The position numbers and the translations under genes are program-made. DNA of 63,929 bases, the filler included, from an uncultured Methanosarcinales archaeon (GTDB taxonomy: Archaea; Nanobdellota; Nanobdellia; Woesearchaeales; CAZKBD01), in the NCBI GenBank assembly GCA_964550945.1. It is 5 parts of 5 records of this genome, joined end to end, with 100 filler letters (N's around TTAATTAATTAA, not from the genome) between each part and the next. Parts side by side here need not be neighbours in the genome. Positions count along the whole stretch, not along the records: positions 1 to 14,985 come from CAZKBD010000042.1; 4 more parts are not named here. One strand, 5' to 3'. This document shows positions 13,804 through 23,037 of this stretch, piece by piece (within the stretch, counting starts at the first letter, position 1; every line of letters starts with the position of its first letter). Below the pieces are notes generated by a model. The model was given only the letters and a program-made list of their open reading frames with translations, had not been told where the DNA came from and did not search any database.

Positions 13804-13920
13804 GGTGTTCCTAAAACTGGTAAGGGTATATAAATTTATTGTGAGTTAAAATCTCATTTTCCACCGGTGTATCTCACTGGTGAATTGCTGCCAGTTATGT
13901 AATCAGGGGAAAATGAGAAC

Positions 13921-13985
13921 AAGAAAATCGGCCCGAGCGAAGCGAGCATACAACCAGTCTATTGACTAAGGTGGCCGATTTTCTT
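13921..13985. repeat. Intergenic hairpin carrying REP-like core
   Basis: 13-bp IR AAGAAAATCGGCC/GGCCGATTTTCTT enclosing CGAGCGAAGCGAG. Confidence 0.75.
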
Positions 13986-14039
13986 TGATATCCAAACAAA
14001 AATCTTTATAAATATACTAAGTTCTCTGGCTTATTAAAT

Positions 14040-14236
14040 GGGCTCGTAGCTCAGCCTGGTTAGAGCGCTGGTCTTATATGACCACGCTTTATGCAACTAA
14101 GACAGCCAGCGGTCGAGGGTTCAAAACTTAGGGACTGCACCCTAAAGGTACCGGCAGTCAAGTGGGACATTCCTCACTTTGTTCGGAAGTCCCACGAACT
14201 TGATGCAATCCCTTTGCGAAAGTCCCTTCGAGCCCA
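14040..14236 (+). tRNA. tRNA-Ile(UAU) with 37/38 intron (14079-14103) and 97-nt 59/60 intron (14126-14222)
   Basis: Acceptor GGGCTCG/CGAGCCC, stem CTGGT/GCCAG, CTTA/TAAG BHB; splicing restores GAGGG-TTCAAAT-CCCTT. Confidence 0.88.
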
Positions 14237-14289
14237 TTTTTCTCTTTTTAGAAGGAGATTAATAGAAAACAAAAAATTAGGTGATATAA

Positions 14290-14487
14290 ATGCCAATTGT
14301 AAACATTGAAACATGGCCAATGGATAAAAAGAAGAAACCAGAGCTTATTAAGAACATTACAGAAGTCTTTACAGAAATGGGAATACCTGCTCAGGCAGTA
14401 ACAGTAATTATCCATGAAACTGAGCTTGATAATTGGGGAAGCGGAGGAGAGCAGCATTCTGTGAAGTTCAAAGATTTAAAAAGATAG
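14290..14487 (+). CDS. 4-oxalocrotonate tautomerase family protein
   Basis: N-terminal catalytic Pro (MPIV), VTVIIHE...NWGSGG. Confidence 0.9.
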   Translation: MPIVNIETWPMDKKKKPELIKNITEVFTEMGIPAQAVTVIIHETELDNWGSGGEQHSVKFKDLKR

Positions 14488-14535
14488 TAAAAAACAATAA
14501 CGTTTATAAATGGGATAAAAAATACAACTTTTAAG

Positions 14536-14732
14536 GCCCCCATGGTGTAGTCCGGTCACAGAAATGCTGGAGAATCATTTCGGCTTTTCGAGCCGAAGAC
14601 GTGGGTTCAAAACGAACCTTTTTGCTCTGCAAAAATGTTCGATCGAAATGGGGAATCTCACTTCGTTCGATTCGTTACTTTTAGAAAAAGTAACCAAAAT
14701 GAGCAGGTTTGGTGAAAGTCCCGCTGGGGGCA
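14536..14732 (+). tRNA. tRNA-Glu(UUC) with 15-nt D-loop intron (14558-14572) and 107-nt 59/60 intron (14612-14718)
   Basis: Acceptor GCCCCCA/TGGGGGC, TCGGC-TT-TTC-GA-GCCGA; BHB helices CCGG/CTGG and perfect TTCA/TGAA. Confidence 0.9.
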
Positions 14733-14757
14733 TTTTTATTACAAAGGTGGTAACTAA

Positions 14758-14859
14758 ATGAAACGTGGATCAAGAAGATGGAAGAAGAAAGGCCAGATGA
14801 GATGGAAATGGCAACGCAAAAGAATGAAGAAAGAGAAAAGAAAAAGAGTAAGAAGATAA
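14758..14859 (+). CDS. rpl41e: Ribosomal protein L41e/eS32-like (33 aa, not in ORF track)
   Basis: MKRGSRRWKKKGQMRWKWQRKRMKKEKRKRVRR; AGGTGG SD upstream. Confidence 0.8.
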   Translation: MKRGSRRWKKKGQMRWKWQRKRMKKEKRKRVRR

Positions 14860-22681: not shown

Positions 22682-22786
22682 GGGGCTGTAGTGTAGTTTG
22701 GCTATCACTGGCGCTCGGGGAGGACTTAAAGTCTTTCTTTTATCGCCTAATAGCGTCCAACCCGTGTTCAAATCACGGCAGCCCCA
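22682..22786 (+). tRNA. tRNA-Pro, probably GGG, with 31-nt intron (22721-22751)
   Basis: Acceptor GGGGCTG/CAGCCCC, stem GGCGC/GCGTC, CCGTG-TTCAAAT-CACGG; C at position 33 atypical. Confidence 0.8.
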
Positions 22787-23037
22787 TACATTCCTTACTT
22801 CTACAGGGGCGTTCATGCTATTGAGTGTAACGAAATAGCATAAACTCATCGCCGGTATCTGTAGGGTGCAGTCCCTCCAACGAATTCCCTTCATATAGTT
22901 CGTGAGACTTCCGAGCAAACCTCAGAAAACACAGTTTTATGATGGTTTAGAAACCATTTATTTCTAAAAGCGAGGAATGTCTCACTAGACTGTAGAATGC
23001 AAACGTACTCGTTTGCGTGGGAACCACGGCAGCCCCA
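22787..23037. mobile_element. Modular palindromic element ending in a duplicate of the tRNA-Pro 3' end
   Basis: CACGGCAGCCCCA at 22774-22786 and 23025-23037; internal modules shared (inverted) with the tRNA-Ile intron. Confidence 0.7.

Follow-up and report, generated by a model that had tools for sequence, protein, structure and literature searches.

T-loop introns in neighbouring tRNA-Ile and tRNA-Glu genes of a Woesearchaeales archaeon and their relation to a tRNA-associated element

What are the large inserts that interrupt the T-loops of two neighbouring tRNA genes in a Woesearchaeales archaeon, and how did they come to lie there? The genes are tRNA-Ile(UAU) and tRNA-Glu(UUC) of an uncultured member of the order (GenBank assembly GCA_964550945.1), and their inserts, of 97 and 107 nt, both fall between nucleotides 59 and 60. 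They lie in a stretch of 63,929 nt, here called the window, which consists of contigs C42, C43, C44, C45 and C124 of one metagenome bin with runs of N between them. The bin has 1.97 Mb in 177 contigs at 36.6% G+C and is 92% complete with 2.3% contamination. C numbers denote contigs of the present genome, G000; other G numbers denote the genomes of relatives. Because the window is made of joined contigs, the loci at 14 kb (C42, at whose end the Ile and Glu genes lie), 22.9 kb (C43) and 41.2 kb (C44) are not contiguous. An earlier note on the window had described the inserts as introns with bulge-helix-bulge (BHB) ends, built from mobile palindromic modules. On the whole we favour a reading in three parts taken jointly: the inserts are BHB introns, the Ile intron belongs to a mobile family specific to tRNA genes, and the family moves at the DNA level.

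Two masked tRNA genes and their splice motif

Neither gene is detected by ARAGORN or by Rfam at its gathering score, and Rfam at a relaxed threshold returns just weak partial tRNA matches at both. Once the T-loop insert is removed in silico, ARAGORN calls tRNA-Ile(tat) with a 25-nt intron, and the orthologues of relatives have an intron at the canonical 37/38 site too. The Glu gene without its T-loop insert gives a cloverleaf by eye. ARAGORN assigns it the wrong type because an insert of ~15 nt in the D-loop (~14559-14573), absent from the earlier note, stays in. Over the whole genome, Rfam places 12 tRNAs over its cut-off and ARAGORN, with introns allowed, also finds 12; at least 15 further tRNA genes are masked by T-loop inserts, and several of these have D-loop inserts as well (Glu, Lys, C71:759 and C37). 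A scan that required acceptor and T stems and left the sequence between them free turned up 15 tRNA genes whose 59/60 site has an insert of 15-110 nt; with the insert removed, ARAGORN recognises a tRNA in 13 of the 15. About half of the lineage's detectable tRNA genes contain 59/60 introns. Since ARAGORN's 12 tRNAs include neither Ile-UAU nor Glu-UUC, the interrupted genes are the sole ones seen for both anticodons; an uninterrupted gene for either, a possibility that the earlier note had weighed against itself, was not found in the 92%-complete genome.

All 15 inserts have the form TTCRAA/...YGAAAG/T or a close variant, where a slash marks a junction of exon and insert. In the RNA, the T-stem is followed by a 3-nt bulge (the last two intron bases, A and G, with T60). 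The centre is a 4-bp helix of T-loop nucleotides 54-57 (UUCR) with the intron's YGAA, and a second 3-nt bulge (A58, A59 and the first intron base) leads to an inner helix. Over the 15 genes, 57 of 60 positions of the central helix are paired, 54 of them as Watson-Crick pairs and 3 as G.U. Base 57 covaries with its intron partner, being A-U in 8 genes, G-C in 4, and G.U, A.C and irregular in one each (n=15). The BHB motif is strict in Glu, with a perfect TTCA:TGAA central helix, the bulges AA/A and AG/T and an inner helix, and it is relaxed in Ile. Both 3-nt bulges appear in the minimum free energy (MFE) folds of most of the 15, Glu included and Ile excepted. The geometry suggests that 59/60 is to the T-arm what the canonical 37/38 site is to the anticodon arm. 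The earlier description of the lengths, position and BHB ends of the two inserts was borne out, the sequence being as described, and we regard both inserts as very probably BHB introns.

One EndA gene was found, on contig C4. Its product of 214 aa has both Pfam domains, N-terminal and catalytic (98 bits), and its best solved relative is the Nanoarchaeum alpha subunit. An RtcB ligase is encoded (433 bits), and RNase P RNA is present; for the latter reason an idea of leaderless tRNAs made without RNase P was dropped. According to excerpts of Kaneta et al. (PMC5829648), DPANN genomes with alpha4-type enzymes show many disrupted tRNA genes and incomplete tRNA sets, and excerpts of Kaneta 2018 tie a loop insert of EndA to broad specificity.

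An element family inside and outside introns

The Ile intron is composed of hairpin A (14126-14159), hairpin B (14162-14195, with the tip TCACTTTGTTC), the sequence CGAACTT and the 3' tail ATGCAATCCCTTTGCGAAAG. The plan of its family is four bases, hairpin A (AGGGACUGCACCCU), about 12 bases ending GCAGUCAAG, hairpin B, CGAACUU, AUGCAAUCCCU and YGAAAG. The loop of hairpin A, ACUGCA, is invariant, and hairpin B varies across the family in both sequence and tip. An exact search with the 14-mer core of module A, AGGGACTGCACCCT, gave 13 matches among 401 genomes of the order, against 2 for the reversed control. Eleven of the 13 lie in or beside tRNA genes; the other two are apparently coding and probably chance. 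The sense 59/60 introns number five: Ile here, and single ones in G067, G251, G300 and G104. Of the three 5' contexts G175 has two and G238 the other, and the three 3' contexts are those of C43, C120 and G012. After removal of the introns ARAGORN types the five hosts as Ile UAU, Leu CAG, Leu UAA, Pro GGG and one untyped, and those outside the present genome (Leu, Pro, untyped) come from four other families of the order. The five sense introns are 54-83% identical; the Ile intron and the tRNA-Pro intron of G300 are 79% identical, and their first 42 nt are the same. A wide genome scan with a pattern whose fixed 18-nt spacer was too rigid gave 22 bacterial matches, taken as chance. It seems likely to us that the Ile intron is a member of a mobile family specific to tRNA genes.

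In an alignment of the five members, hairpin A pairs in 97% of cells with compensatory changes in three of its seven pairs, and 0 of 500 shuffles reach its score. For a rival long-range pairing, AGGGA/UCCCU, which would form the BHB inner helix, 78% of cells are paired and a single pair shows compensatory change. Both folds may exist; both were judged on five sequences, a small sample. Readings of the hairpins as K-turn, C/D-box or sarcin-ricin motifs were dropped, since by eye these motifs misfit.

The comparison of empty and filled introns that the earlier note proposed was made for Ile. Among orthologous Ile(UAU) genes of seven relatives, four have no T-loop intron (G018, G009, G034 and G032) and three have unrelated T-loop introns (G035, G017 and G005), so the 59/60 site of Ile appears to have been often filled and emptied. 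The intron end CGAAAG of Ile would pair perfectly with G57, as it does in G104, and mismatches the A57 of its present host; it may be a trace of arrival from a G57 host.

Within the present genome the element of module A and its hairpin has five copies, and five of five are at tRNA genes. Besides the copy in the Ile intron there is one upstream of tRNA-Gly(UCC) on C31, in sense, and there are three antisense copies downstream of Pro(CGG) on C43, of a tRNA mistyped by ARAGORN on C120 and of Lys(CUU) on C5. The antisense copies are ~79% alike over ~70 nt (BLAST; C5:23933-24001, C120:1691-1756). These five copies, and those in other genomes, dispose of the possibility, raised in the earlier note, that the modules are confined to two loci. 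Each of the four non-intron copies has a whole tRNA gene on one side and part of that gene, repeated, on the other. The partial copy is nt 1-21 on C31. On C43 and C120 it is the 3' end, starting in the T-loop at nt 57-60 and reaching nt 73; after tRNA-Lys on C5 it is degenerate (10/14). Among 30 tRNA genes checked, three have an adjacent partial duplicate of at least 12 nt, and the element is in the insert in all three. The repeats on the flanks consist of tRNA pieces, 13-23 nt or more in length.

The insert downstream of tRNA-Pro at 22.9 kb holds the arms of a hairpin B' (~22897-22919 and 22967-22992), module A (22851-22876) and a second hairpin (~22816-22849). The earlier note had reported near-identical copies of both Ile modules at this non-intron locus, in the order B then A on the minus strand. 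The sharing and the order stand. Near-identity holds for module A, which on the minus strand is 24/26 identical (0 matches in 100 shuffles). It does not hold for module B, of which the arms alone recur, at 88-91% identity around a loop insertion of ~50 nt, with no intact copy. A change in the module B stem, GTGGGAC/GTCCCAC to GTGAGAC/GTCTCAC, is compensatory. The opposite order corresponds to a truncated unit, consisting of hairpin B' alone, after which comes a full unit of A and hairpin.

Similar arrangements are found in relatives. At two loci of G175 a copy of nt 1-20/23 precedes the element and the full tRNA comes after it. In G238 the element is placed after nt 21 of the tRNA itself, and in G012 and G027 tRNAs are followed by related inserts and the tRNA 3' end is repeated. 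We also observed that the tRNA-Ile(UAU) of G018, which has no T-loop intron, is followed by an insert of ~110 nt. The direct repeat on its flanks is 38 nt long, beginning in the T-loop and extending 21 nt beyond the tRNA end.

The Glu intron appears to represent a second family, common to tRNA-Lys(CUU). Over 53 nt at its 3' end it has 90.6% identity with the 110-nt T-loop intron that this gene contains on contig C5, a further 16 nt match exactly, and both introns have the same hairpins, partly reordered, within a long closing helix. The fold of the Glu intron has three hairpins inside this helix, one with the tip TCACTTCGTTC. The earlier note had linked the Glu intron by a common loop to a miniature inverted-repeat transposable element (MITE) at 41.2 kb; 16 identical nt are indeed common to the two, but the 41.2-kb element is single-copy and is outside the intron family. 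No Rfam family matches either intron or the 22.9-kb insert at E up to 10. The Glu gene adjoins the Ile gene in relatives, and the pair is syntenic across the order (seen in G035, G017 and G005). The neighbouring Ile and Glu T-loop introns of G035 resemble each other, and not those of the present genome.

A DNA-level route and its alternatives

By what means could one element become an intron in tRNAs of several isotypes? The sequence UUCR is nearly universal in tRNAs, and a self-closing sequence that ends in YGAAAG and is placed after A59 should form a spliceable intron, which would make 59/60 a universal landing site. Since the element brings with it one half of the splice motif (YGAAAG and the inner helix), it should be able to create an intron in any tRNA. 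The earlier note had offered two ideas that fare well here, namely that the intron interiors are modular and that the repeats may themselves create BHB introns. The Ile intron would be one copy of a mobile structured element (hairpin A, a variable hairpin B and CGAAC) that has moved between tRNA isotypes and between genomes. This movement would be at the DNA level and not by reverse splicing, because both orientations occur, and because the duplication on C5 includes a diverged promoter and others include the trailer. The position of the non-intron copies, beside partial tRNA copies that stop in the D-loop or start in the T-loop, argues in the same direction. We lean towards movement at the DNA level. 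Each duplication has one end fixed in a loop and the other end variable, which counts for repair of a break. A speculative route is that a break in the loop-coding DNA would be repaired by copying with template switching, and LAGLIDADG endonucleases encoded beside tRNA genes would be candidates for making the break. We offer this route tentatively and consider it somewhat doubtful.

One of these endonuclease genes, at C5:22985-23653, is an open reading frame (ORF) of 223 aa with the LAGLIDADG domain PF14528 (35.4 bits against a cut-off of 22.5) and two LAGLIDADG-like motifs visible in the translation. It stands between an exact copy of nt 1-22 of tRNA-Lys and the full gene (region C5:22796-23660). 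A second LAGLIDADG ORF, at C40:~300-1150, is directly upstream of tRNA-Arg(UCU). Homologues occur in 9 of 40 relatives, where 5 of 13 loci have an Rfam-detectable tRNA within ~100-490 nt; by a rough estimate this is far above the few per cent expected from tRNA density. In G001 a copy of nt 1-21, an endonuclease gene and the full tRNA follow one another. The G238 tRNA, which has 20 of its first 21 nt the same as the G001 tRNA, has the small element at the same position. As a separate observation, the 5' untranslated region of both endonuclease genes of the present genome contains a motif of ~40 nt that has ~15 copies in the genome.

A wider proposal is that the T-loop introns of the order are self-sufficient mobile elements that exploit an invariant tRNA sequence, by way of the collaborative homing of a protein-spliced intron. 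Here endonucleases would break the DNA coding for the D-loop or T-loop, an intron at the site would shield it from cutting, and copying repair with template switching would leave the partial tRNA duplications behind. In collaborative homing the intron breaks the target site of the endonuclease and both spread together. Phages reportedly do this with an intron and a free-standing homing endonuclease, in work attributed to Bonocora and Shub and to Zeng et al. in 2009. In the phage case the likeness is that a free-standing endonuclease gene adjoins an intron-bearing gene; the difference is that the phage introns are self-splicing group I introns in protein-coding genes, whereas the present introns would be protein-spliced and are in tRNA genes, and the cleavage is putative. 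Rfam finds no group I intron in the endonuclease loci. We judge this wider proposal to be rather unlikely as it stands.

The earlier note saw in the modules a repeat akin to repetitive extragenic palindromes (REP) or MITEs. Taken as a generic one, it would land anywhere by means of a transposase of the HUH type or of the REP-associated tyrosine transposase (RAYT) type and would survive in neutral BHB introns that were already there. Several observations fit. The tip motif TCRCTTYGYTC was found 21 times against 5.3 expected by an analytic estimate, and it tops hairpins in several unrelated contexts, the 41.2-kb element included; the introns of G000 and G300, near-identical elsewhere, have different tips on hairpin B, as if a cassette had been swapped; and the HUH transposase search that the note had suggested turned up two IS200-type Y1 transposase genes in the genome. 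No sequence link of these genes to the modules was seen; on C153, where the contig ends cut off the ends of the transposase element, no hairpins or sequence in common with modules A and B came to light. BLAST finds no second copy of the 41.2-kb element in the assembly, and the modules have neither terminal inverted repeats nor fixed target duplications. With five of five A/hairpin copies tied to tRNA genes and none elsewhere in the genome, and with no terminal inverted repeats, the element is probably tRNA-specific and not a generic MITE. Nor is it a passenger in the sense introns, because its own ends build the splice motif. The safe-haven account is thus quite unlikely. A different origin would be as scars of integration, in which a plasmid or virus with a tyrosine integrase entered tRNA genes, deletions left modules A and B, and an intron-bearing attachment site seeded the introns. 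The inserts do have direct repeats of tRNA ends on their flanks, which begin in the T-loop or stop in the D-loop, and those of G018 and G027 extend beyond the tRNA end. A model of this kind, published in PMC3293823 and known to us from excerpts of that paper, explains the repeats equally well. It is unlikely in view of inserts of 72-250 bp without an integrase, of the same modules beside many different tRNAs in both orientations, and of the genome's one tyrosine recombinase, which is on C24, far from these loci. The sole protein gene found in a repeat-flanked insert is the LAGLIDADG endonuclease. Viral contigs contain 118 stretches with the 14-mer, and these are treated as chance because none of the 118 shows the element signature.

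The invariant loop and compensatory stem changes of hairpin A, together with the location of the sense copies in transcribed places (introns and 5' leaders), would also suit a conserved functional RNA, protein-binding or active in tRNA maturation, that is delivered from an intron or leader and inherited vertically. The distribution is patchy (10/401 genomes), the host tRNAs vary between genomes, three of the five copies in the genome are antisense to the tRNA, and no Rfam family matches; this makes vertical inheritance of such an RNA decidedly improbable. Finally, the genome is a 177-contig metagenome bin and the Ile splice motif is imperfect, so the loci might be thought misassembled or the genes dead pseudogenes. 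The runs that contain the stretch are groundwater metagenomes. Contigs from one sample match 14051-14760, and contigs from a second match 14051-14494 and 14535-14729, with 0 differences (two samples of one study), which makes misassembly, a concern of the earlier note also, unlikely. The exons rebuild normal cloverleaves, no other gene was found for either anticodon, and the same architecture is present in 15 genes here and in other genomes. Artefact or decay is scarcely credible.

To return to a mobile tRNA-specific family of BHB introns that moves at the DNA level, a number of points weigh against it or against its parts. Splicing of the T-loop inserts is predicted from sequence. In Ile the TTCA/CGAA helix has an A57.C mismatch, the one A.C among the 15, the inner helix has two U.U pairs, and the MFE fold lacks the BHB. 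The EndA is a single-gene alpha4-like form, a type described in papers as strict. No convincing BHB was found around the non-intron copies, where a strict search gave just weak chance-like matches and also missed the known Ile and Glu motifs. By exact word the 14-mer is sparse, in 10 of 401 genomes, and hairpin A might be conserved for a function and not through recent spread. The relatives compared all belong to other families of the order, so close kin fall outside the comparison and it holds no strain-level pairs of filled and empty sites. As to the break, three 5' duplications start exactly at tRNA nt +1, which a pure DNA-break model does not predict. The LAGLIDADG protein has no sequence relative in the PDB at E up to 0.01, the tRNA-Arg beside the C40 endonuclease has no D-loop or T-loop intron, and the connection of endonuclease and intron is one of adjacency, with putative cleavage.

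Features of the window and their surroundings

The coordinates of the features are collected in Table 1.

Table 1. Positions of tRNA genes, inserts and the 41.2-kb element along the window (slashes mark junctions of exon and insert)
Feature	Position	Strand	Basis or remark
tRNA-Ile(UAU) gene	14040..14236	+	exons 14040-14078, 14104-14125, 14223-14236; cloverleaf read from sequence
tRNA-Ile canonical 37/38 intron, 25 nt	14079..14103	+	ARAGORN intron call i(40,25)
tRNA-Ile T-loop (59/60) intron, 97 nt	14126..14222	+	ends TTCAAA/ACTT...GCGAAAG/T
tRNA-Glu(UUC) gene	14536..14732	+	cloverleaf by eye; acceptor and T stems from pattern scan
tRNA-Glu T-loop (59/60) intron, 107 nt	14612..14718	+	ends TTCAAA/ACGA...GGTGAAAG/T
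tRNA-Pro(CGG), 23-nt canonical intron, no T-loop intron	22682..22786	+	ARAGORN C43:7597-7701
Insert downstream of tRNA-Pro, antisense to tRNA	22787..23023	-	ends GTGGGAA beside tRNA fragment
Second copy of tRNA-Pro 3' end (CACGGCAGCCCCA)	23024..23036	+	exact 13-nt direct repeat; nt 61-73, possibly from nt 58
MITE-like element, 16-bp terminal inverted repeat AGGCTGTGTTCAAAAT, flanking direct repeat TAATCAAAAA	41064..41250		intergenic gap; single-copy

Between the Ile and Glu genes, at 14290-14487, is an ORF of 65 aa, by eye a candidate 4-oxalocrotonate tautomerase family protein. Directly 5' of the tRNA-Ile promoter, at 13840-13995 (C42), is a structured repeat of ~150 nt that has seven copies in the genome (C42, C17, C3, C148, C4, C58 and C96) at 75-92% identity. 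The copies form two subfamilies with a conserved two-domain fold and a terminal T-run, and no Rfam family matches them; the repeat is a candidate for a small RNA gene in several copies or for a mobile element. Outside the window, on C153 and C146, an IS200-type Y1 transposase gene precedes an ORF of 265 aa, after which comes a reverse transcriptase. Most differences between the ORF's 3' end (~1190-1290) and a repeat farther downstream (~1600-1700) fall at adenines, a pattern like that of a diversity-generating retroelement.

Relation to known systems and meaning

The earlier note knew of no description of a link between such repeats and BHB introns. That was too strong, in that intron transposition, an integration model and 59/60 introns have all been published. 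Introns with a BHB at 59/60 are reported in the excerpts of Fujishima et al. 2011 (PMC3239211) for pre-tRNA-Cys(GCA) and pre-tRNA-Pro(GGG) of ARMAN-2 (Ca. Micrarchaeum), also a DPANN archaeon. Their site and type of motif are those seen here, and in vitro the endonuclease of the host cleaved the 13-nt Cys intron. By those excerpts the ARMAN-2 Cys intron is short (13 nt), the introns are not reported as a common family, and the enzyme is the three-unit epsilon2 form; the present genome has the site in 15 genes, inserts of up to 110 nt and a single alpha-type gene of 214 aa. Intron transposition in Thermoproteales (Fujishima 2010), of unknown mechanism, is known to us as summarised in PMC4090602. 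There, near-identical introns are found in different isotypes and the gain is placed at the DNA level. Similar introns in different isotypes, the mark of intron transposition, are found here as well (54-83% identity in the Ile family, and Glu and Lys within the genome). In comparison with the Thermoproteales of that summary, the present family is in a different phylum, keeps to one fixed site, 59/60, and spans genomes of different families. It also has copies outside introns beside partial tRNA duplicates, a feature that does not appear in the summary.

The nearest likeness to these duplicates is the tRNA-Thr of Caldiarchaeum. In the excerpted account of Sugahara et al. 2012 (PMC3293823), integration of a mobile element brings the gain of an intron and strands a 5' fragment of the tRNA. 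As here, the insert stands between a partial copy of the tRNA and the whole gene, and the gain of an intron is tied to a mobile element. The Caldiarchaeum insert is described there as 1.8 kb with a putative recombinase, whereas the present inserts are 72-250 bp and geneless, or ~860 bp with a LAGLIDADG gene, and the small element is itself the intron elsewhere. A model of the Caldiarchaeum type leaves the tiny inserts, the two orientations and the missing integrase unexplained. According to excerpts of a preprint of 2026, tests of copying, of mobile elements and of reverse transcription in Asgard archaea brought out no general route of arrival. What seems to be new, as judged from open full text, supplementary files apart, is a conserved family of T-loop introns that is also found beside partially duplicated tRNAs; LAGLIDADG genes beside archaeal tRNA genes likewise seem undescribed there.

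Because the standard finders see just 12 tRNAs in this genome, tRNA counts and inferences from codon usage would be badly biased for such lineages. For the question how the protein-spliced introns of archaeal tRNA genes arrive, this locus gives a testable handle. It offers one element that is an intron in several isotypes and genomes at a universal site, the same element outside introns with junctions at loop positions, and nuclease candidates beside tRNA genes with the same footprints. The finding is of good interest because it makes the mechanism of intron arrival testable.

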